Positions 1,433-61,676 of a stretch of DNA of 64,000 nucleotides are shown here, piece by piece. The notes below the pieces were generated by a model, which worked only from the letters and a program-made list of their open reading frames with translations, did no database searches and had not been told where the DNA came from. Numbering within the stretch: position 1 is the first letter of the stretch; every line of letters starts with the position of its first letter. The DNA is from Candidatus Saccharimonadota bacterium (GTDB lineage Bacteria > Patescibacteriota > Saccharimonadia > Saccharimonadales > 2-12-FULL-41-12): assembly GCA_022842995.1 (NCBI GenBank), contig JALHOM010000003.1:12659-76658 (forward strand). Reading direction: 5' to 3'. The position numbers and the translations under genes were made by a program.

Positions 1433-2182
1433 ATCTTATGTACAAGGACTGTCCTTGTACATAAGATTGTTTATAAGATTTATTTTATTAGCTATCCGCA
1501 GGCAGTCCTTTTAAATCGCTCCTAATACGTAAATAACCGCTATGAAATTCCTCTATTTCTCTCGGACTATCAAAGGATCCTTTCCACCATTCAGGTTCCA
1601 GCCAATCAGATTTTTCTTTGCCGACATAATTTCGATAACTTGAATAGGGATAGTTCTTAAATCCTTCTTTACTATCTGCTCCATTTAGATGGATATACCT
1701 AACGATATGCCACCAGTAAGAATCATCTTCAATACATGAGCCTTTATATCTACCCTGGAACAATACCCCACTTCGTTTGTATTTTTTATTGAAATATACA
1801 CTATATCCTGTAGCTACTGACCGCATAAGCCCTGATATTCCTCGATCTGAATATTGATATAAGAGCAGGTGGAAATGATTTGGCATTAAACAATACGCCC
1901 TCAGTTCAACCTGCTCATAAAAATTCTGCCGCCTATAGGTATACCGCTCGGCACACGAGAATAAGCTACTGTCTACTTTTTCAATCTTTTCCGGGGACAT
2001 AAGTGCGTATTTGAGTAAATTTAGAAATACAGAATAGTCTTGATCGTCCTCAAAAATAATTCTTTTATCGACTCCACGATTGTACACATGCCACATCTGA
2101 TCTGGCGCAAATTGTTTTAGAGAATTCCTGCTAGGCATATCATTACCATACTGTACAAGGACTGTCCTTGTACAGTATGGTA
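1433..2182 (-). mobile_element. IS200/IS605-type or REP/RAYT-type unit: Y1 transposase gene flanked by two hairpins with the same core
   Basis: Perfect palindromes at 1433-1467 (35 nt) and 2144-2182 (39 nt) share the core tgtacaaggac-t-gtccttgtaca and bracket ORF 1488-2138. Confidence 0.7.
1488..2138 (-). CDS. HUH/Y1 transposase, IS200-like / REP-associated tyrosine transposase (RAYT)-like
   Basis: 216-aa ORF with HUH motif (CLMPNHFHLLL) and a downstream YIHLN tyrosine region. Size is typical of the Y1_Tnp family. Confidence 0.8.
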   Translation of the reverse strand: MPSRNSLKQFAPDQMWHVYNRGVDKRIIFEDDQDYSVFLNLLKYALMSPEKIEKVDSSLFSCAERYTYRRQNFYEQVELRAYCLMPNHFHLLLYQYSDRGISGLMRSVATGYSVYFNKKYKRSGVLFQGRYKGSCIEDDSYWWHIVRYIHLNGADSKEGFKNYPYSSYRNYVGKEKSDWLEPEWWKGSFDSPREIEEFHSGYLRIRSDLKGLPADS

Positions 2183-5548: not shown

Positions 5549-6448
5549 TTAATCGGCGTGGTCTTCTTCTTTGGCATGATCATCGGCAGCATGAGAGTCA
5601 GCATCATCGTGAGGCTTGCCCGGTTCGTCTTTGTGCTGGACCTGTGAAGTTTCAGTGGCGTGATCATCGTGACCGTGGTCGATATAACGGTGCGCCAGGC
5701 TAATAGACAACCCCACCACCAAAACACCCACCAGCAGCATAATTGGCTGAACATCAAACAACTTCTTCCGGTTGGCCTGCTTGTGGATAGTCGGAATAAT
5801 GTCACTCATGGCGATGTACAGCAAGAATCCAGCACTAACTCCCAGCAAAATTTCAATCGGAAAGTTCTCTGACGAGCCAACCAAATAAGTCAATACTGCA
5901 GCAGCGGTTGTCGCCAGCGAGCTCATGATATTCACGAGCAGTATCTTCTTGCGTTTCATGCCACGTTCCAAAAGCAAACCGAAGTCGCCAATTTCCTGAG
6001 GAATCTCATGAGCAGCAACAGCCAGTGTGGTAATAATTCCGGTCGGGATTGATATCAAAAAGGCAGCGGCAATCGCTACACCGTCTAGGGCATTATGTAT
6101 CGTATCTCCAGTGATAATCAGACTGGACGACACTTTATTGTGGGCCTCATCTTCTTCGTGGTGGTGATGAAACCAGTGCAGAAATCTTTCGGCCAAAAAG
6201 AAGCCGAGAATCCCGAATAATACACCGTAGAGGACGTTATCGATACTGCCCTCATGAGCCCCTTCTTTGATAAGGTCCAAAAAGACAGTCGCCAGCAAGC
6301 CACCGGCCGCAAACGGCGTAACGTAGCGCACAAGCTTCTTCCCATGCTGCTTACTGCCCAATAGTAAAACACCACCGATGAGCGAAATAAGCCCACCAAT
6401 AATCGAAAATATCAAAATGTAAAGTAGTAAATCCATGAACATTACCAT
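5549..6448 (-). CDS. ZIP-family divalent metal (zinc) transporter with His-rich loop and tail
   Basis: Polytopic ORF with HEIPQEIGDFGLL (ZIP signature), HWFHHHHEEDEAH loop and His/Asp-rich C-terminus. Confidence 0.85.
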   Translation of the reverse strand: MVMFMDLLLYILIFSIIGGLISLIGGVLLLGSKQHGKKLVRYVTPFAAGGLLATVFLDLIKEGAHEGSIDNVLYGVLFGILGFFLAERFLHWFHHHHEEDEAHNKVSSSLIITGDTIHNALDGVAIAAAFLISIPTGIITTLAVAAHEIPQEIGDFGLLLERGMKRKKILLVNIMSSLATTAAAVLTYLVGSSENFPIEILLGVSAGFLLYIAMSDIIPTIHKQANRKKLFDVQPIMLLVGVLVVGLSISLAHRYIDHGHDDHATETSQVQHKDEPGKPHDDADSHAADDHAKEEDHAD

Positions 6449-6505
6449 ACGATGGGCGATACTTTATTGCAACATTATCGCAATTTTAATATAATAATCG
6501 CAGTT

Positions 6506-6940
6506 ATGATTAATCTCGACGCCGTTTATTCAGCCAAGCTCAAAGAAGGGGGCCTCAGTAATACCATCCCTCGGCGGACAGTCTTCACTCTCCTCCGTGG
6601 CGCCGACCACAAACCACTCACCATGAATGAGCTCATACGTCTCGCATCTTCAGACTGTGACCGCGCCAGCGTCTATCGAGCAGTCGAGGCACTAGAAAAG
6701 GCCGGCATAATCCATAAGGTACACTACGGCTGGAAATACAGGCTAGAACTCAGCGAAGATTTTCATGGCCACCATCATCATATTGCCTGCAGTAATTGTG
6801 CCAAAATTGTAGCCATTGAAAGCTCAAGCTTGCTAGAAAACGCCCTGCATGAACTCGCTGCAACAAAAGATTTTTCGTTAACAGAACATTCGGTCGAACT
6901 ACGCGGCCTTTGCGGCAATTGCCAAAGCAAAAACCCCTAG
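6506..6940 (+). CDS. Fur-family metalloregulator (Zur-like)
   Basis: Winged-helix N-terminus, HGHHHHIACSNC and CGNC metal-site motifs. Start moved to MINLDAVY (6506) because the track start at 6452 abuts the divergent ZIP gene. Confidence 0.8.
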   Translation: MINLDAVYSAKLKEGGLSNTIPRRTVFTLLRGADHKPLTMNELIRLASSDCDRASVYRAVEALEKAGIIHKVHYGWKYRLELSEDFHGHHHHIACSNCAKIVAIESSSLLENALHELAATKDFSLTEHSVELRGLCGNCQSKNP

Positions 6941-7064
6941 AAAAACATGGAACCCCGGTGATACCGAGGTTCTTGGGAAGCCTCACACTTCCACATGCAT
7001 AATACTGCTGGTTGCTAGCTACGGTCTGTGATAAATCTCACACCCCATGTGCCATTTAAAAGTT

Positions 7065-8894
7065 TTACTTCTGTCGTTTGCGTTTGTTGGGGTCGAGTTC
7101 GCGTTTGCGAAGTCGCAAGTTCGCAGGCGTCACTTCGAGCAGTTCATCGTTTTCGATGAAATCAAGACACTGCTCCAAGCTCAAAATCGTTGGCGGTGTC
7201 AATTGCACCACTCCGTCAGAAGAAGTACTGCGCATATTAGTTAGTTGCTTTGCCTTGCAGACGTTGATCTCCATGTCTTCCTGACGTGTATTTAGGCCAA
7301 TAATCTGACCAGCATACACCTTTTCACCCGGACCAATAAACGTTGTTCCGCGTGCTTCGGCATTTTGCAATGAGTATGGTGTTGTTGTGCCATTTTCGAA
7401 GGCGATTAATACGCCGTTTCTAAGCTGCTGCAACGACTGACCCAGTGGTTGATAGCCAATCATCAAGCTGTGCATGATGATCGTACCCTTGGTGTTCGTC
7501 AGTAAAATTCCTTTTGCTCCAAGCAGTGCCCGGGTTGGCAATTCATAAATAAGCTTGGTTACGCCTTTTGGTGAAGCAAACTGTTCTTTGAGCACCGCTC
7601 GCCGCGAGCCCATTTCCATCTGCGCCGCACCGACATGCTCGGCCGGCACTTCCACGATCAACTCTTCGATCGGCTCTTCTATAACGCCACCGTTATCACG
7701 TGTCACCACTTGAGGGCGACCAACCTCAAATTCATAGCCTTCTCGGCGCATAGTTTCGATCAAAACGCTCAGGTGAAGCTCACCTCTACCCGATACCAAG
7801 AAGCCGATTCCCTCTTCTTCGACACGCAGACCAACGTTAACCTCTAACTCTTTGTCGAGCCGTTCTTTGATTTGGCGAGAGGTGGTAAATTCACCTTCCT
7901 GGCCTTTCATTGGGCTGGTATTTGGCCCAAGGTAAATCTTGAGCGTTGGCGCTTCTACTTCCATAACTGGCAAAGCTTCGGGATTTTCAGCGTCGGCAAT
8001 TGTTTCGCCAATCTGGGCGTCAGCAACGCCGGTCAACTGAACAATATCTCCAGCCACACCTTCAGCGACTTCAAACTTAGAAACTCCGTGGCTCATATAC
8101 ACCTGATCGACTTTTGCTTTAACTGTTTCGCCCGATTTTTGACACAGCGCAACGCTCATCCCAGCTTTTACGCGGCCCCTCGTTATCCGACCAATTGCGT
8201 ACTTTCCTTTGTAACTATCCCACGAAAGAGCAGTTACCAACATTTGAAATGGTTTATCTTGCTCTACCTGAGGCGCTGGAACATGTTCGATAATTGCTGC
8301 AAAAACCGGCTCTAAGTCAGCGCCTGCTACAGGGTCTGAAGGAATATCGTTCCACGCTTTACCCTCACGTCCAATCGCATAGTACACAGGGTAGTGAAGC
8401 TGGTCTTCGTGAACCGCCAGTTCCAAGAACAGATCTGCTAGTTCGTCTTCGACTTCTTTGATTCTGGACCCCGGCTTATCGATCTTGTTAATGATAACGA
8501 TTGGCGTCAGTTCTGCGGCCAAGGCTTTTCCAAGAACGAATTTTGTTTGTGGCATTGGGCCTTCTTGGGCGTCAACAATCAGCAAACAACCATCTGCCAT
8601 GTTAAGCGTTCGCTCAACCTCACCCGAAAAATCCGCGTGACCAGGCGTGTCGATGATATTGATACGGTATTCGCCGTGCTGCACCGCAGTAACCTTGGCA
8701 GTGATAGTAATGCCGCGTTCTTTTTCCTGGTCACCACTATCCATGATGAGGTCTTGGGCCATCTCGGCCTGGTTGTCGCGAAACGTCTGACTTTGCTTCA
8801 GCAGACCATCAACCAGCGTTGTTTTGCCATGGTCAACGTGAGCGATAACAGCGATATTACGAATTTTTGACGGATCTTGAACCGAATTTTGCAC
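7065..8894 (-). CDS. typA: translational GTPase TypA/BipA
   Basis: 609 aa, AHVDHGKTTL, DTPGHADF and NKIDK G-motifs; full-length BipA architecture. Confidence 0.95.
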   Translation of the reverse strand: MQNSVQDPSKIRNIAVIAHVDHGKTTLVDGLLKQSQTFRDNQAEMAQDLIMDSGDQEKERGITITAKVTAVQHGEYRINIIDTPGHADFSGEVERTLNMADGCLLIVDAQEGPMPQTKFVLGKALAAELTPIVIINKIDKPGSRIKEVEDELADLFLELAVHEDQLHYPVYYAIGREGKAWNDIPSDPVAGADLEPVFAAIIEHVPAPQVEQDKPFQMLVTALSWDSYKGKYAIGRITRGRVKAGMSVALCQKSGETVKAKVDQVYMSHGVSKFEVAEGVAGDIVQLTGVADAQIGETIADAENPEALPVMEVEAPTLKIYLGPNTSPMKGQEGEFTTSRQIKERLDKELEVNVGLRVEEEGIGFLVSGRGELHLSVLIETMRREGYEFEVGRPQVVTRDNGGVIEEPIEELIVEVPAEHVGAAQMEMGSRRAVLKEQFASPKGVTKLIYELPTRALLGAKGILLTNTKGTIIMHSLMIGYQPLGQSLQQLRNGVLIAFENGTTTPYSLQNAEARGTTFIGPGEKVYAGQIIGLNTRQEDMEINVCKAKQLTNMRSTSSDGVVQLTPPTILSLEQCLDFIENDELLEVTPANLRLRKRELDPNKRKRQK

Positions 8895-16810: not shown

Positions 16811-16856
16811 GGCTTGAGTATAACAAACCTTTCTTACTAATCCCCACTCGTTATCA

Positions 16857-17095
16857 GGAATTGGAAATTGGGAATTAGGAATTAGCAGACATGAGTTATG
16901 AGATATGAGTTAAGAGACAAGAGTAGCTCCTAGCTACTAGATGCTAGCGGCTAGCTACAAACTCCTACTCCTTTCGCCGCAGGCGAATCTTAACTCATGA
17001 CTCTTAACTCATGACTCTTTTTAGTCTTTAGTCTTTAAGCTTTAAGCTTTAAGCTTTCAGCTTTTTTCTAATTCCTAATTCCCAATTTCCAAATA
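16857..17095. repeat. ~240-bp composite palindromic element built from short tandem-repeat modules
   Basis: Perfect 25-nt terminal inverted repeats ttggaaattgggaattaggaattag (16861-16885) / ctaattcctaattcccaatttccaa (17068-17092). Inner modules are (atgagtta)n, (tagctac)n and (ttaagct)n, with complementary modules on the other arm. Confidence 0.85.
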
Positions 17096-41164: not shown

Positions 41165-41289
41165 TTGATTTTTCCCTCCTAAAATATACGGGATTAATTG
41201 CTATTACCTGACATATAACGCAGGTACCACCCAAAACGTTACAAAAATCTCCCCAATGGCAAATCAAAAACCCCTTAACTACCACAACC

Positions 41290-41334
41290 ATTTTGCAAGG
41301 ATAAACCCTGCAACAGGGTTTATCCTTGCAAAAT
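41290..41334. repeat. perfect 21-bp-stem palindrome
   Basis: attttgcaaggataaaccctg-caa-cagggtttatccttgcaaaat. Confidence 0.9.
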
Positions 41335-41431
41335 GACGCCTTAAAAACATGTAAATAAATTACGCGATCGTGGATTTTATTTACATAGAGGTCGCACCTC
41401 TGTAGTTGGGCGGACAAACAGAGGTTACCGC

Positions 41432-41479
41432 CATGTAAATGTTGTACGCGATCGCGTACAACATTTACATGTTTTTTTT
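41432..41479 (+). terminator. perfect 40-nt palindrome followed by T8 (terminator-like, no annotated upstream + gene)
   Basis: catgtaaatgttgtacgcga|tcgcgtacaacatttacatg, then tttttttt (41472-41479). Confidence 0.6.
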
Positions 41480-41808
41480 GGCGGTTAATTGACGAGGGTA
41501 ATCGGGTACTATAAGGCGACCTAACAGGGGTGCAGCAAGAAAATCGGGGTATTTTGTATTGGAATCTGGGGATTATTTGTAACAATTTGTTATGTATCTC
41601 GTTATATATAAAGTAAGCCCTGTTCTCGATTCTCGGTAATCGAACTTCATCACCGAAATAGAACTATCGGATTTGATAGACTAGAGTTATGAGTTATGGC
41701 GTGCCAGCAATCGGCCAAATGCCGAACTATCGTCAAGCCGGGAGCACCTCAACAGCACGTAAGGGAGCATGGGTTATAAGAAAAAGACCCAAAAAACACA
41801 ACTAAGAT

Positions 41809-47303: not shown

Positions 47304-47981
47304 ATGACCAAAACAACAGAGCAGAAACGAATTGCAAGAGAAACAATAGGGCAACATCTCGACCGCGTCCATATACTTACTGAGAATGGCGGTTTCGAGG
47401 CTTCAACTACTTTAGGAAAAGATACTTTAGAGCGACTCAAACTAGCTAGTAAGGCCATCGCTACGCTTCTTAGAGCTCCTCAACTTCCTTCAGAAAGAGT
47501 TTTAATTTCACCTGATCAAATTACACACTTTGGACAGGATTCCCTACGCCTATTCTATCTTTCTCAATCAGGATTGCATTTGGGAAAAAGCAGTGGCCCA
47601 CAGTTTAGTCTCTGCCCATCTGGAGCAATACGATTTCGGTCAGTCGAGCATGCGCTTTCACCACCATTAAATGGCACTTTGCCGCCACAGAGCGCAGTCA
47701 TCCCTCCGGCTAAAATATTGCAGCAATGTATCGACGGCGAGAACATTTACCTAGGAACCCACGCAGTCTATTATTATATGCCCCGCCAAGGACACCCGAG
47801 AGCCACACTAGAAGCTCGACCCTCTCTGAGAACCGAATCAGAAAGAAACTTAAGATACCTATCCGCCGCATCTGTCACCGCCCAAACCTTCCATGAAGTA
47901 TATACTCGCCTGCTTGAACACCCCGATTTCCCTTACGATACGTTCGTTGACCTCACCCCTCCCAAACCCATAAAAGAATAA
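47304..47981 (+). CDS. orphan array member 9 (225 aa)
   Basis: ORF. RIARETIGQHL, TLERLKLASKAIATLL, and C-terminal helix LRYLSAASVTAQTFHEVYTRLLEH. Lacks the Trp. Confidence 0.55.
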   Translation: MTKTTEQKRIARETIGQHLDRVHILTENGGFEASTTLGKDTLERLKLASKAIATLLRAPQLPSERVLISPDQITHFGQDSLRLFYLSQSGLHLGKSSGPQFSLCPSGAIRFRSVEHALSPPLNGTLPPQSAVIPPAKILQQCIDGENIYLGTHAVYYYMPRQGHPRATLEARPSLRTESERNLRYLSAASVTAQTFHEVYTRLLEHPDFPYDTFVDLTPPKPIKE

Positions 47982-47989
47982 AGATTAAA

Positions 47990-48098
47990 GAGAGCTACGA
48001 GTCTTAAGCTATGAGCTTTGAGTCATAAGCTATGAGTTATTGTAAAAGGGCTATGAGTCGTAAGATATGAGTTATGAGTTAAGAACTTTGAGAATCTA
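47990..48098. repeat. short-tandem-repeat block of the (a)tgag(t/c)(t/c)a(t/a) type
   Basis: aagctatgagctttgagtcataagctatgagttat...ctatgagtcgtaagatatgagttatgagttaagaac. Same word family as 16890-16915, 41684-41698, 51153-51186 and 52150-52180. Confidence 0.8.
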
Positions 48099-48108
48099 GT
48101 CAGCTGGG

Positions 48109-48148
48109 GCCGGCTTTCGCTGGCCAGCGAAGGATAACTGATGAAAAA
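48109..48148. repeat. 40-nt direct repeat copy 1 (contains palindrome TTCGCTGG/CCAGCGAA)
   Basis: gccggctttcgctggccagcgaaggataactgatgaaaaa, identical to 48898-48937. Confidence 0.95.
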
Positions 48149-50655: not shown

Positions 50656-52629
50656 TTATTGGATTTTATAGAGTGCTATGGAATCGTCTTGATAGCTCTC
50701 ACTAAAGCTCGGTCGGCCGTCAAAGACGTCGTATTTCTGCCAATCGAACTCTTTGACCACTACTACGTATTCTATGCTATCTTCTTTCAGGACGTCCGCC
50801 AAGTTTTGCCGGAAAGCAAGATCGGGCAATACATCCTTCTCAAAGCGCATTACCGCCGAATCTTGAACGGACTCATTGAGCGCGCCCAGCTCGGGATTAC
50901 TACTCATCACCGCCGGATATCCCATAAACCTTGGCGCAGGATTCGCCACGACACCACCCGTAAACTCCATTGGCATATACAAATGCCAGGGCAAATACAA
51001 AACCTTGCCACCACGATATTCACGGTCCAATACCGACTCTACCTGATACCACCCTCTCGGGTAATCGCCAGTTTTTGGCCAGGCGGTTGGGTCGAGGAAG
51101 ATGCCCGGTACCAAAAATATTGGGACAAGTAAAAATACTGCCCAATATTTTTGTGAGTCATGAGTCATGAGCCATGAGTCATGAGTTTTTTGTTTTCCGT
51201 AATCTGTTTTCCGTAATCTTGTATTACTGCCCACCGATATCTTTTTGCTGCTACTTAATTTTCTACTGACTACGGATAACTGATGACTGATAACTGACTT
51301 ATTGCTTTGAGCAAATGCAAGCAAGCCGCAGCCCGCGAAGTAGACGTACGCCAATGCAATAAGTCCGGCGAATTTCTGAGGTTCACGGTAGCCACTAAAC
51401 AGCGGGATATGGTCGACCAAAAACTGGTTTAGTAGGCCGACTATTGGAGCCTTTGTACCTGCCGCGAGAACGAGTCCAGCCGCCAACAAACTAGCGAAGA
51501 TTTTGAAGTAAAATCGCATGTGTTTATAGGACCAAAATGCCCCCTTAATAACCAAGTAAAGCAGCACCGCAAGTGGGAGCCACCACCACCAATGCGTATC
51601 TTGAGGCAAGAGGTACAAATTGCCGTTGTCCGCCCAAAAACCCTGCAATCGTAATAGGTTGCCGAATATTCCTATCCCGTCGCCAGTTGTTGCGTAAGCG
51701 GTTAGATCATCGACGCCAAATGAGCTGATCGTGTCCGCTGTTTGCCCTTTGCCGAGGATGAGGGGCAGGAGCCAATAGGAAGATAGCAGGAGCCATGAGA
51801 TTTGAGTCATGAGATAAGATTTAGCTGCGCGCTTGACAGTATCTTTATTAGCACGCTCGTCAATAGCCCACCACATAAAGACTATGAACGTCATGATGAC
51901 GGAGATGCCGAGGAAGTGAATGGACAATACGCCGGTTAAGGCCAGCAGTCCGCCGAGCGTTAGCCATTGTTTTCTGGTGGGGTTTTTGAGCAGTTTTAGG
52001 GTAGCTAGGAGGATGAATGGGAGGAGGGCGTAGCCCATTAAAACGGCCCATTGACCTGTCATGAAGCGAGTATAGACGAAATTATTTAGCAGATATAAGG
52101 CTCCAGCAAATATCGGGACTATCGCAATGGGCCGTGTAGCTTCATTTGAGACATGAGTCATGAGATATGAGTCATGAGCTTTTTGCTGCTTATCTTTTAT
52201 CTTTAATCTTTTATCTTTTATCTCGAGTCTTTCTTCTTTTGTCTTTCCTCTTTGAACTTTTGCATGCACTCTTTCATCTGCGGTCTTTGTTTTTTTCTGC
52301 TTGTCCTCCGGAGCCTTGGCGAAGGAGGATGAACCGTTAACTGTATACTCGATCATTTTTTTGGCACCAATAAAAATGGTCGCTAGTATTGCTAAGAGCA
52401 AAAGCCTCTGCACCACCCAGGCCGGCATAATCTTGGACAAAAGATACAGTAAATACTCGAACCAAAAAATAGACGTAACCGCCGTCGGTGCCGGCATATC
52501 CGGGACAAAAACCATATCCGGCACAAAGATATACCCCGGAACAAAAGATAACTGCATCACTAAAAACACCAGAGATATCAAAGCAACTTTTGCCCATCGT
52601 GATTGCAGGAAGTTACTTCGTTTTAGCAT
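50656..52629 (-). CDS. polytopic membrane protein (657 aa), likely envelope-glycan assembly; carries in-frame tandem-repeat insertions
   Basis: About 12 TM segments plus a C-terminal soluble domain. Hydrophilic loops are encoded by repeat DNA at 51150-51305, 51790-51830 and 52148-52300. Confidence 0.65.
   Translation of the reverse strand: MLKRSNFLQSRWAKVALISLVFLVMQLSFVPGYIFVPDMVFVPDMPAPTAVTSIFWFEYLLYLLSKIMPAWVVQRLLLLAILATIFIGAKKMIEYTVNGSSSFAKAPEDKQKKTKTADERVHAKVQRGKTKEERLEIKDKRLKIKDKQQKAHDSYLMTHVSNEATRPIAIVPIFAGALYLLNNFVYTRFMTGQWAVLMGYALLPFILLATLKLLKNPTRKQWLTLGGLLALTGVLSIHFLGISVIMTFIVFMWWAIDERANKDTVKRAAKSYLMTQISWLLLSSYWLLPLILGKGQTADTISSFGVDDLTAYATTGDGIGIFGNLLRLQGFWADNGNLYLLPQDTHWWWWLPLAVLLYLVIKGAFWSYKHMRFYFKIFASLLAAGLVLAAGTKAPIVGLLNQFLVDHIPLFSGYREPQKFAGLIALAYVYFAGCGLLAFAQSNKSVISHQLSVVSRKLSSSKKISVGSNTRLRKTDYGKQKTHDSWLMTHDSQKYWAVFLLVPIFLVPGIFLDPTAWPKTGDYPRGWYQVESVLDREYRGGKVLYLPWHLYMPMEFTGGVVANPAPRFMGYPAVMSSNPELGALNESVQDSAVMRFEKDVLPDLAFRQNLADVLKEDSIEYVVVVKEFDWQKYDVFDGRPSFSESYQDDSIALYKIQ
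51150..51305. repeat. in-frame modular short-tandem-repeat block inside CDS
   Basis: (gtcatga)n at 51153-51186, (ttttccgtaatctg)x2 at 51192-51219, (ctga[tc]aa/ctgac)n at 51263-51301. Translated as ...SHQLSVVSRKLSS...RLRKTDYGKQKTHDSWLMTHDSQ. Confidence 0.85.
52148..52300. repeat. second in-frame modular short-tandem-repeat block inside CDS
   Basis: gagacatgagtcatgagatatgagtcatgagc, then (cttttatct)n, then (tctttc)n. Translated as KTKEERLEIKDKRLKIKDKQQKAHDSYLMTHVS. Confidence 0.85.
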
Positions 52630-59674: not shown

Positions 59675-60540
59675 ACATTACCTCCTCTTGGCGGAACTGA
59701 ATTCGATTTGCCCCTTATTGCGCCCTTAAGGTACCCTGCTGCGCCCGCAAGATACTCTAAGGATTTCATTACCAGCATGCCTAACGATTCTAGTGGGTTC
59801 GCGAGAAGCTTGTTGGGGTTCCGAAAAAATAATCTAAATCGAGCCACAGGCCCCGCATCGTCCATCAGCTTCGAAGTTGTGTTAGAGGCAGACAAGTACT
59901 GCTGGGCATGCTGGGCGTAGTAATACTTTTTCTTGAGGGTTTTATATAAATTAATTTTGCCTTCATTGTGATAAATCAAATCATCAATGCGCACGATCTT
60001 GCCGATTTCTCTTACTCTCCGGCTCAAGTCCCAGTCTTCCCCACTTACTAAGTCCGTATTAAATCCACCAAGTTTTTGATAAGTTGCTTTTTTAAAAAAG
60101 CGAGCTGCTTCTATAGCGTCGTTTCCGATATAATATGACCTCTCCAGCTTTTTGCACTGCGCCCAAAAGCCTATTCCAAATGACTCCTCAGGGATAATAA
60201 CTCCTTCGTTTTTGGCACTTTTTGCCATAGCACTTACGCAAGACTCAACCACGCCATCGCTAAGCTTCATGTCTGAGTCTATAATCGCCACGTATTCGCC
60301 AGATGCTTTATCTACCCCAAGGTTTCTTTGGGCGGAGCGTTCGGGGCCATGGTTGAAGACTTTTTTGGTAAACTTACGAGCGATCTTTTTGGTGTCGTCG
60401 GTTGAGTCACGATCTACGATCATTAATTCAATTTTTTTATACGTCTGGTCGGCTATGGACTGCAGACAATCTTCTAGAGTTCCCGCGCTATTCCGCGTCG
60501 GGACAATCACTGAAACCAGAGGGTCTTTGGTCCTGCTCAC
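59671..60540 (-). CDS. family 2 glycosyltransferase
   Basis: VSVIVPTRNSAGTL, VDRDSTDDT, IDSDM, GEDWDL. Start set to the GTG at 60540, which forms a GTGA overlap with the upstream stop (the track ATG at 60606 would overlap by 70 nt). Confidence 0.8.
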   Translation of the reverse strand: MSRTKDPLVSVIVPTRNSAGTLEDCLQSIADQTYKKIELMIVDRDSTDDTKKIARKFTKKVFNHGPERSAQRNLGVDKASGEYVAIIDSDMKLSDGVVESCVSAMAKSAKNEGVIIPEESFGIGFWAQCKKLERSYYIGNDAIEAARFFKKATYQKLGGFNTDLVSGEDWDLSRRVREIGKIVRIDDLIYHNEGKINLYKTLKKKYYYAQHAQQYLSASNTTSKLMDDAGPVARFRLFFRNPNKLLANPLESLGMLVMKSLEYLAGAAGYLKGAIRGKSNSVPPRGGNV

Positions 60541-61676
60541 GCGGTTTCCTTTAGTACGTTTTTGAAATCTTTGTAGCATTGTTCGAAGGTGATTTGCTTG
60601 CTCCATTGCCAGGCGTCTTGTTGCAGTCTTTTATATAACGAGTCGTCGGTCAGAATTGTTACAATATTTTTGGCTAAATCTTCCGGCGTCGACACGCTTA
60701 CCAACCCAGTTTTATAATGCCGCACGCTGTCACGCAGGCCATCGCTGTTATATACCACCGCTGGCGTGCCTTGGCTATTTGCCTCGGTCACCGTCAGTCC
60801 CCAGCCTTCTTTGACCGCTGTTTGTAACAATATGTGCGCTTTGCCCATAAGCTCGACTTTTTTGGCCTCACTCACCCGACCGAGATATTCTATGGCGTCT
60901 TTGTGTCGACTAGCTTCTACGTATGCGAGGACCTTTTTGCCGTACGCAGTATTGGCTCCACCGCCGGCAATCTTCATGCGTAGTTCTGGCATTTCGTCCC
61001 GCGCAATCTCAAAGGCTTTGACCTGCGCCAAAGTTTGCTTCATAGCCCGCAGAGCACCCAAACTCAAAACCGTCGACTGAGAATACTTCCCCCCCAATTT
61101 CAAATTTCTATTTTCTAATTTCTGAATTGGCTTAATGCCAATTCCCTCGGATATAATATGAATCTTGTTACCACGGAAGGTATAACGCATCAGATCTTTC
61201 TTGGTCGATTCACTGACTGTCAGTACCGTTGCCTTGGACCGAGACAGCAAAAACGTCGCAGCCGGCTCTAAAATTCCATAGCCAATAATCGCAAGCGGCA
61301 ACGGCGCTTCATAAAACCAGATCTGCCGTGCTAACTGGTGATAAAACAAGATTGAACGTGTCTTTTTGCCCTTAAAAAACGGCGTGAAGTACGGCGCAGT
61401 ATTGACCGCCTCTATCACTACGTCGTATTTGCCACGACAATGCTTTATGAAATATGGCGCAGTTTTAAAAGGCTGAATATACCGGTTACCCTTTAACCGA
61501 ACAACATTTGCTCCATCGAGCTCCAGCTCTTCATGTTTACCCGAAAATGAAGCAGTAAGGATATCCACTTCGTGGCCATCGGCAATCTGGCGCTTGATAA
61601 TCTCGTGCATCACCAACTCCGCCCCGCCACTCTGGGGGTGCTCCCAATCCTTCCAGGTAACCCACAGAACTCTCAC
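60537..61676 (-). CDS. family 4 (GT-B) glycosyltransferase
   Basis: 379 aa; N-terminal GGAE motif region; C-terminal EGWGLTVTEANSQGTPAV (E-x7-E type). Confidence 0.85.
   Translation of the reverse strand: MRVLWVTWKDWEHPQSGGAELVMHEIIKRQIADGHEVDILTASFSGKHEELELDGANVVRLKGNRYIQPFKTAPYFIKHCRGKYDVVIEAVNTAPYFTPFFKGKKTRSILFYHQLARQIWFYEAPLPLAIIGYGILEPAATFLLSRSKATVLTVSESTKKDLMRYTFRGNKIHIISEGIGIKPIQKLENRNLKLGGKYSQSTVLSLGALRAMKQTLAQVKAFEIARDEMPELRMKIAGGGANTAYGKKVLAYVEASRHKDAIEYLGRVSEAKKVELMGKAHILLQTAVKEGWGLTVTEANSQGTPAVVYNSDGLRDSVRHYKTGLVSVSTPEDLAKNIVTILTDDSLYKRLQQDAWQWSKQITFEQCYKDFKNVLKETA

Follow-up and report, generated by a model that had tools for sequence, protein, structure and literature searches.

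The host gene and its setting

The window analysed here is a stretch of 64,000 nucleotides (nt) from a Candidatus Saccharimonadota genome (contig JALHOM010000003.1). On its minus strand, at 50656..52629, lies an uninterrupted open reading frame (ORF) of 657 aa, called here the host gene, which encodes a polytopic membrane protein and carries in frame three blocks built of tandem repeats of 7 nt. The blocks had been pointed out in a first-pass annotation, made from the letters of the DNA, which compared them to the palindromic elements of Rickettsia. Two of them are insertions shared with a single known ortholog, and in all three the stop codons that the repeats would bring into the reading frame have been removed by point changes.

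The host protein matches the Pfam family DUF6541 (E = 9.7e-8) and, below threshold, an MmpA-like family of NCBIfam. Its homologs (n = 42) come from Saccharibacteria/Saccharimonadales and are mostly 540–570 aa long (about 550). A look-up of the exact protein gave a single record and no further contigs. Approximately 10 hydrophobic segments are followed by a C-terminal tail of 144 aa. An AlphaFold2 (AF2) model built with 40 sequences had a mean predicted local distance difference test score (pLDDT) of 86, and Foldseek searches with this model retrieved AftD (6w98, E = 2e-8), AftA, STT3/PglB and ArnT. The protein shows the features expected of a GT-C glycosyltransferase: a fold of multiple transmembrane (TM) helices, a soluble domain at the C-terminus and, in the first extracytoplasmic loop, an acidic residue. 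In the homolog alignments D38, which lies in the loop after TM1, is (nearly) invariant. The neighbouring genes form a polysaccharide cluster with GT2, GT4 and methyltransferase genes, and the gene order is kept in the loci of three relatives and in that of the closest ortholog, on contig L001. The host gene is therefore predicted to be an intact gene for a membrane glycosyltransferase-like protein of the GT-C fold (DUF6541, AftD-like), in a polysaccharide-synthesis cluster of a Saccharibacteria-like bacterium.

It is not a pseudogene, and is presumably a working gene, because the family-invariant residues are all intact in the homolog alignments, the predicted TM-score (pTM) of the AF2 model is 0.86 and the gene order matches that of the ortholog. 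A pseudogene interrupted at the repeat blocks, which the first-pass annotation had named as a finding that would speak against its reading, was not what was found.

The gene upstream of the host gene encodes 1207 aa and, below threshold, also matches the MmpA-like family. The two genes overlap by 17 nt at the start of the host gene (52613–52629), which suggests that they may be co-translated within one operon. Compared with the ortholog's locus, the C-terminus of this upstream product is 37% identical, and the product of the downstream gene, of 257 aa, is 80% identical.

Repeat blocks within the host gene

By local autocorrelation in the window, period 7 alone among periods 4–15 is strong, and Tandem Repeats Finder (TRF) returned 21 rows of period 7. 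The repeat segments of the host gene were confirmed where the first-pass annotation had placed them, with TRF arrays in the first and the last. The window holds eight copies of GAGTCATGAG, where 0.09 would be expected; the host gene has six and an intergenic hairpin (16994–17017) the other two. Every block is in frame, as had been claimed. The arrays within the gene are short, with 3.3–4.9 units and 80–92% matches by TRF, and are broken by the changes that remove stop codons. All are read on the minus strand.

Insert 1 (aa 99–161, GSSSFAK...LMTHVS) occupies 52147..52335 and forms part of the loop between TM2 and TM3. A (CTCATGA)-type array at 52147..52179 encodes AHDSYLMTHVS; TRF reports here 2.3 copies of the 14-mer TGAGACATGAGTCA (52147–52178). 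Next to it, at 52189..52261, lies an (AAGATAA)-type array that encodes EIKDKRLKIKDK and then runs into degenerate heptamers. On the forward strand TRF describes the latter as TTATCTT x4.9 (52190–52223, with period 7 and 21), grading into degenerate heptamers to about 52261; the repeat (cttttatct)n given for this region in the first-pass annotation was a misreading of this heptamer array. At 52304..52329 a small GC-rich hairpin, tcctcc..ggagga around ttcgccaagg, appears as a local stem in the fold and encodes SSFAKAPE. Its anchor ttcgccaag is common to the ortholog, where L001 has ccttcttcgccaag in the same frame.

Segment 2 (aa 271–279, SYLMTQISW; 51793..51819) is a degenerate CTCATGA-type array, only 67% like the reference copy. 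The corresponding array of the ortholog, (TCATGGC)x4.7, is cleaner.

Insert 3 (aa 442–493, SNKSVIS...THDSQ) occupies 51151..51306, in the loop before the last TM helix. Its (CTCATGA)x4.7 array (51154..51186; TGAGTCA x4.7 in TRF) encodes THDSWLMTHDS, is specific to the lineage of the window and is absent from L001. Beside it lies (GATTACGGAAAACA)x2 at 51190..51219, a 14-mer for which TRF gives 2.1 copies with 100% matches (51191–51219); it encodes RLRKTDYGKQ and supplies the 3' arm of the insert-3 hairpin. The 5' arm is a TCAGTTA array (51262..51300), which is TAACTGA reversed, encodes KSVISHQLSVVS and includes the TRF row GATAACT x3.3 (51275–51297).

Parts of these blocks recur. A module of 39 nt at the ends of inserts 1 and 3 is 90% identical between them, and an exact 12-mer is also common to both. 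The first-pass annotation had seen nearly the same string in 52148–52300 and 16888–16912; over 26 nt the two copies, at 52149–52174 and 16887–16912, agree at 24 of 26 positions, where no such match is expected by chance. The composite string is thus common to the host gene and to an intergenic hairpin element (16856–17092), as had been stated. The broader claim, that the blocks in the gene are made of an intergenic vocabulary, stood in part: the CATGAG-type word alone is common to the intergenic elements, and no intergenic copy of TTATCTT, of the 14-mer or of TAACTGA was found within the 64-kb window.

Insertions relative to homologs

The ortholog alignment proposed in the first-pass annotation to find out whether the blocks are lineage-specific insertions has been run. 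Residues 99–161 and 442–493 have no counterpart in 38 of 39 homologs. Inserts 1 and 3 are present only in P0002, an ortholog 57% identical to the host protein and encoded on contig L001 of an independent assembly, ERZ761595, where they lie at the same two positions. Segment 2, in contrast, is gapless against all homologs and leaves the length of the protein unchanged. The idea of insertion holds for two of the three blocks.

The same division applies to the claim of three hydrophilic loops between TM segments. Judged by hydropathy and charge, inserts 1 and 3 lie in loops that contain 19 and 11 K+R residues, respectively. In the AF2 model insert 1 is helical, with pLDDT 57–83, and insert 3 has pLDDT 45–64. 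Segment 2 lies within a TM helix (262–282), with pLDDT > 90. From the alignments, inserts 1 and 3 are best described as lineage-specific in-frame insertions in K/R-rich loops. The usual topology of GT-C enzymes was used to orient these loops. Since the conserved Asp lies in the loop after TM1 and the soluble domain is C-terminal, both true inserts would, on this topology, be in cytoplasmic loops, opposite the extracytoplasmic catalytic face.

The arrays themselves are similarly restricted. No arrays of period 7, 14 or 21 were found in three syntenic loci of insert-free relatives (L123, L124 and L125; 59 kb), compared with the 21 rows of period 7 in the window. Within Saccharibacteria, carrying heptamer arrays is therefore a genome trait specific to a lineage.

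Stop codons and translation

A heptamer array runs through all three frames every 21 nt, and each of the words CTCATGA, AAGATAA and AGTCAGT contains a stop triplet. When each array of the gene was rebuilt in silico as a perfect repeat and read in the frame of the gene, one or two in-frame stops appeared in each, and the deviations of the real arrays fall on exactly those codons. In the array at 51154–51186 a change of TGA to TGG is the sole deviation in 33 nt. At 52147–52179 the would-be in-frame TGA reads TAT, and at 52189–52261 the would-be TAA reads TTA, where the ortholog has CTA. The would-be TAG of the TCAGTTA array reads TTA, with the same TTA in the ortholog. In segment 2 two would-be in-frame TGA codons read TAT and TGG.

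Approximately 350 nt of stop-prone repeats thus stay open through changes on the would-be stop codons, which shows selection for an intact product. It appears from the reading frame that the blocks are translated as extra loops after point changes had removed each in-frame stop. In the segment-2 array of the ortholog the stop-free unit TCATGGC is also found in units that do not need it, and this spread suggests that homogenisation may have taken place within the array.

Hairpins and junctions

Of the two inserts, one forms a hairpin. The RNA fold of insert 3 has z = -2.97 in the window and z = -8.84 in the L001 ortholog, whereas that of insert 1 has z = +0.46. The two copies of GATTACGGAAAACA are related in inverted orientation (11/13) to a stretch of the neighbouring TCAGTTA array, which has GACTACGGATAAC at 51268–51280. 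They are identical in L001, and the TCAGTTA array has the same order of irregular units there.

Inverted repeats also join insert 3 to the native DNA on both sides. At the insert end, 51141–51153 pairs with 51112–51124 in a 13/13 inverted repeat (51112..51153), which connects the QKYW codons of the insert to the native TM codons for PIFLV. At the insert start, 51296–51309 pairs with 51352–51365 in a 13/14 inverted repeat (51296..51365), which connects the insert to native codons for GLIAL. At this border L001 has a perfect 23/23 inverted repeat, 1957–1979 with 2004–2026, with conserved TM residues (GLIALSYC) encoded in one arm and the insert start (AITQGNKS) in the other. Together with the adjacent repeat hairpin it folds at -64.8 kcal/mol, the z-score being that given above for the ortholog. 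Only 16 inverted repeats of comparable size and spacing occur in the whole 64 kb. A candidate junction hairpin at insert 1 (52350–52382, 10/11) was rejected as evidence; both of its arms are native A/T-rich codons.

Intergenic repeats in the window

The intergenic hairpin at 16856..17092 (locus A) is composed of heptamer blocks of AGGAATT, ATGAGTT, TAGCTCC, TTTAGTC and TTTAAGC and takes up almost all of the space between a gene for a K+/H+ antiporter and a quinone-oxidoreductase-like gene, both on the minus strand. Its fold has an energy of -107 kcal/mol (z = -11.8). Every one of its words has stops on both strands, and the element therefore closes all six reading frames. A second intergenic locus at 47973..48081 (locus B) has heptamer blocks of AAAGAAT, AGCTATG and TATGAGT. 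It is not a hairpin (z = -1.07) and starts exactly at the stop codon of ORF 47304..47981. Beyond it lies a separate GC-rich hairpin (about 48103–48130, in a region that extends to 48135), with an NYN-domain gene on the other side.

Promoter and terminator scans of the host gene and of locus A gave nothing above chance.

The window also contains a gene for a Y1 (IS200-like) transposase similar to the REP-associated tyrosine transposases (RAYTs, where REP stands for repetitive extragenic palindrome), ORF 1488..2138 on the minus strand, within 1433–2199. Its match to Pfam PF01797 is above the cut-off, and that to the NCBIfam model 'REP-associated tyrosine transposase' (E = 1.3e-10) is below it. 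Two identical palindromes of 21 nt, GTACAAGGACTGTCCTTGTAC, flank the gene at 1440–1460 and 2153–2173. No other copy of this palindrome was found in the 64-kb window, and it has no similarity to the heptamer words. A connection between this gene and the heptamer arrays was considered and rejected, as the palindrome is not dispersed and no homolog of the gene stands beside arrays in the 120 cross-phylum loci described below.

The repeat class in other genomes

Repeats of 7 nt have been on record since 1990 and occur in excess in several phyla; their origin and function are not understood. Over-representation of heptameric simple sequence repeats (SSRs) has been documented, with the short tandemly repeated repetitive (STRR) sequences of Calothrix among them (PMC4692102). 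Direct repeats of TAACTGA were described in Beggiatoaceae, 15 Cyanobacteria and 5 Bacteroidetes (MacGregor 2015, PMC4679880). Their forward copies close all frames, and reverse copies read LSVISYQ. The few copies within ORFs are mostly at protein ends, the mechanism of their formation is not known, and such arrays are hard to assemble (PMC4679880).

The blocks of the host gene belong to this STRR/TAACTGA class, which includes the STRR of heterocystous cyanobacteria, because the array at 51262–51300 is a reverse TAACTGA array that encodes KSVISHQLSVVS, comparable to the published LSVISYQ, and because the heptamer properties match. In both cases units of 7 nt form short tandem arrays, several words stand adjacent in blocks that are mostly intergenic (here loci A and B), the words bear stops (in all three frames for the published forward words), the spread across phyla is patchy with a mechanism that is not known, and occasional copies lie in ORFs. 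The statement in the first-pass annotation that the vocabulary is different is accordingly only partly right: host phylum and repeat structure differ from those of the Rickettsia elements, but the class itself was already published, including in-ORF copies that read LSVISYQ.

There are differences from the published cases. The host here is Saccharibacteria-like (Patescibacteria), outside the described range of Cyanobacteria, Bacteroidetes and Beggiatoaceae, which extends the range and does not exclude membership of the class. The arrays lie in the middle of a conserved gene for a polytopic enzyme, rather than at protein ends or in small hypothetical ORFs. The stop-bearing words CTCATGA and AAGATAA have been made translatable by point changes, and the blocks build hairpins and include stretches of the neighbouring coding DNA in inverted orientation. 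What is new is therefore the phylum, the presence of stop-bearing words with repaired stops in mid-gene, the inverted copies at the junctions and, as set out below, a block that is 93% identical between genomes despite synonymous saturation.

A genome scan with ATGAGTYATGAGNYATGAG gave at least 120 loci (L002–L121). Those listed are mainly from Bacteroidota and Cyanobacteria; they also include at least 5 loci of Patescibacteria, some of Acidobacteriota and Ignavibacteria and those of a few other phyla, and none of the 120 with ATGAGTY arrays is from Proteobacteria or Firmicutes. Together they contain 432 arrays of period 7, compared with at most 109 for any other period. Words of the window recur among them: ACTCATG stands beside AATTAGG in a Rikenellaceae locus, an AGGAATT hairpin occurs in a Prevotellaceae locus, and AGGAATT accompanies ATGAGTY arrays in unrelated phyla. 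Of 11 heptamer words examined, 10 have stops on the listed strand and 8 on both strands.

In these loci 15 of 347 arrays (4%) are situated well within long open frames, in MurG-like, GT2, GcpE, sigma-54 activator, CbiX-CbiC and AIR-synthase-like genes. In a Patescibacteria metagenome-assembled genome (MAG; JAQTSG010000013.1, L031) a MurG-like GT28 gene (6224–7432) has three in-frame heptamer arrays. One of them, at about 6345–6447, is palindromic, (CCCCTCT)n..(AGAGGGG)n; the peptide that it encodes, PPTPLPPLPNP...GEVRGEKGER, splits the N-terminal domain. In-frame heptamer arrays are a rare but general side-effect of the repeat class.

A possible second case lies in the window itself. An AATTTCT x4.6 array (61096–61128), in a GT4 gene at 60537..61676 on the minus strand, encodes QKLENRNLKL, a linker between two Rossmann domains. 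It is length-neutral compared with MshA (3c4q), and a codon that would be an in-frame TAG is TTG. This array of 33 nt is a doubtful candidate for a further colonised gene, since it is length-neutral and its TRF score is no higher than those of arrays of other periods; it may be a second, minor case or due to chance.

Origin of the blocks

The explanation that we hold to be somewhat better than evenly probable is that the heptamer blocks were gained by local errors of replication and repair in an ancestor common to two related lineages of Saccharibacteria, and were then filtered by selection on the reading frame. The blocks would have been created and moved locally, rather than by transposition of a discrete element. 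Slipped-strand mispairing would produce tandem units of 7 and 14 nt, template switching at fold-backs or quasipalindromes would produce inverted copies of adjacent DNA, and arrays at different loci may occasionally have been copied ectopically from one to another. The survivors would be those that kept the frame, had their in-frame stops removed by point changes and lay at sites that the protein tolerates, which here would be two cytoplasmic loops and one TM stretch where the repeat encodes hydrophobic residues. The outcome would be blocks translated as K/R-rich flexible or helical cytoplasmic linkers, with a peptide that is itself presumably neutral. Local copying is suggested because the 14-mer is inverted, inverted repeats stand at the junctions, the 39-nt module is common to both inserts, the TCATGGC unit has spread and insert-free relatives have no arrays.

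Quasipalindrome or fold-back template-switch mutagenesis (the Ripley model) yields perfect inverted copies of adjacent sequence, and the junction repeats of 23/23, 13/13 and 13/14, together with the inverted 14-mer, fit this description. The process is known mainly for small mutations; to our knowledge it has not been described as building in-frame insertions of 150–190 nt or heptamer arrays.

Several observations weigh against an origin by local errors. The insert-3 block is identical at 85 of 91 nt (93%) between the window and L001, and at 24 of 27 third-codon positions; for the remainder of the gene the latter figure is 261 of 612 (43%), a difference with Fisher p = 1.4e-6. In a neighbouring gene third positions are 37% identical while the protein is 80% identical, so that synonymous sites are saturated between the two genomes, and the best-conserved 27-codon stretches of the host gene fall in the insert-3 block. 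Filler that is neutral and prone to slippage would not be expected to be conserved better than all other DNA at the locus. Either this block is constrained as DNA or RNA or the lineages exchanged it recently, and the hairpin block seems to be under added constraint at the nucleotide level. The match of 24/26 between locus A and insert 1, with its shared irregular units, requires copying across 35 kb. That the same words occur in distant phyla may point to a sequence-specific process. The total lengths of the inserts are not multiples of 7.

The conservation of insert 3 favours a functional nucleic-acid element, in which the DNA or mRNA block, especially the insert-3 hairpin, would be kept as a protein-binding site, to slow translation before the last TM helix or for mRNA stability, with the peptide as a by-product. 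To the 93% identity and the 24 of 27 third positions against a saturated background may be added the hairpin potential in both orthologs, the same words across phyla and proposals in the literature that such repeats serve as binding sites for regulators (PMC4679880; bioRxiv 10.1101/2022.06.06.494920). Nevertheless the three differences in the arms, between the two sequences available, are roughly structure-neutral and not compensatory, insert 1 and the CTCATGA modules specific to the window are not conserved, no Rfam family and no promoter or terminator signal above chance was found, and a recent exchange of the block between lineages explains the identity equally well. We regard this explanation as possible, though unlikely. 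A broader form of it, in which a laterally spread, sequence-specific enzyme or heptamer-binding protein writes or maintains the words ATGAGTY, AGGAATT and TAACTGA in coding and intergenic DNA of Patescibacteria, Bacteroidota and Cyanobacteria, and the in-gene hairpin is conserved at 93% as a functional DNA or RNA element and not for its peptide, is decidedly improbable. An equally slight probability is given to a hairpin element similar to a Rickettsia palindromic element (RPE) or a miniature inverted-repeat transposable element (MITE), transposing into genes and intergenic DNA, perhaps by means of the HUH (Y1) RAYT-like gene at 1488..2138. An RPE is a discrete element of about 150 bp; each family has a consensus sequence and encodes a conserved peptide, and copies lie in dozens of unrelated genes (Ogata et al. 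2000, summarised in PMC10969869). As in RPEs, repeat DNA of an intergenic type lies here in frame in a conserved gene, at a tolerant site and without destroying the protein, and insert 3 forms a hairpin; the 26-nt composite is also part of an intergenic hairpin, the window has a Y1 gene with two identical flanking palindromes, and the MurG-like gene of another Patescibacteria MAG has an in-frame palindromic heptamer insert. Unlike RPEs, the loci have in common only modules of 26–39 nt, with no second full copy among the data searched, insert 1 has no significant fold (its z-score, given above, is positive), the building blocks are tandem heptamers and, within 64 kb, the host gene alone is affected, apart from the doubtful GT4 array. 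In an exhaustive search of 1.84 billion representatives the insert-3 peptide matched only itself, and no full-length second copy of either insert was found. Among viral contigs the 22-nt core and the 14-mer pair of insert 3 had no match; a metagenome scan with the 21-nt composite gave one other locus, an intergenic hairpin (L122); and a query with an idealised CTCATGA-array peptide gave 4 word-sharing proteins among 5.8 billion, none of which scored. The inverted repeats pair an insert end with native DNA and never one end with the other, and the orthologs agree in insertion positions and differ in block content. REP sequences and their hairpin doublets (REPINs), which are associated with RAYTs, resemble the present case in their hairpin-forming repeats and in the presence of a RAYT-like gene with palindromes, but the palindrome GTACAAGGACTGTCCTTGTAC is unlike the heptamer words and, within the window, is confined to the two sides of that gene. 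Because no full-length copies were found in the data searched, and no terminal inverted repeats or target-site duplications by repeat search and inspection of the insert borders, the blocks are probably not RPE or MITE copies. The RPE-like behaviour proposed in the first-pass annotation is partly supported, in the in-frame insertion at tolerant sites; as a mechanism or as family membership it was not upheld, since a discrete element for which a family consensus could be drawn is lacking.

Two further explanations were weighed. Phase variation through repeats is well known from glycosyltransferase genes, which are classic targets of it, and the 7-nt arrays might be slippage switches of a surface-glycan gene, as in the SSR contingency loci of Haemophilus, Neisseria and Campylobacter. 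The unit is not a multiple of 3, it lies inside a glycosyltransferase gene of a surface-polysaccharide cluster, and in simulations each of five arrays, when lengthened or shortened by one unit, led to a stop within 3–13 codons, so that, as in contingency loci, a change of one unit truncates the product. In contrast to those loci the arrays here are of several words and short, are interrupted by the stop-repair changes with no long uninterrupted tract, are old and stable between two diverged lineages and not hypervariable, and the same words occur in purely intergenic hairpins; we consider a contingency locus very improbable. Of still smaller probability is an artefact, either an error in the assembly of the MAG or a dead gene with an open frame by chance. 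The source genome is uncultured and repeat arrays are hard to assemble (PMC4679880), but an independent assembly (ERZ761595) has the inserts at the same positions with partly identical DNA, the stop-prone repeats remain open through changes on the exact would-be stops, invariant residues are kept and the structure model is confident. This explanation is largely refuted.

The locus may be regarded as a compact natural experiment, in which a known repeat class is exposed to the strict filter of an essential-looking reading frame. The repair of stops shows translation, the junction inverted repeats hint at how the blocks are made, and a repeat block can be the slowest-evolving DNA of its locus. 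The relatives without arrays are also without inserts, which opens comparative searches for the responsible factor in Patescibacteria. Such blocks also illustrate a route by which membrane enzymes may gain new cytoplasmic loops.

Other features of the window

An Rfam scan of the whole window found one tRNA and nothing else. An intergenic cluster at 41289–41480 contains perfect palindromes with arms of 22 and 23 nt, the last of which is followed by T8. This last palindrome looks like a conventional bidirectional terminator, and the genome would thus also use ordinary terminators.

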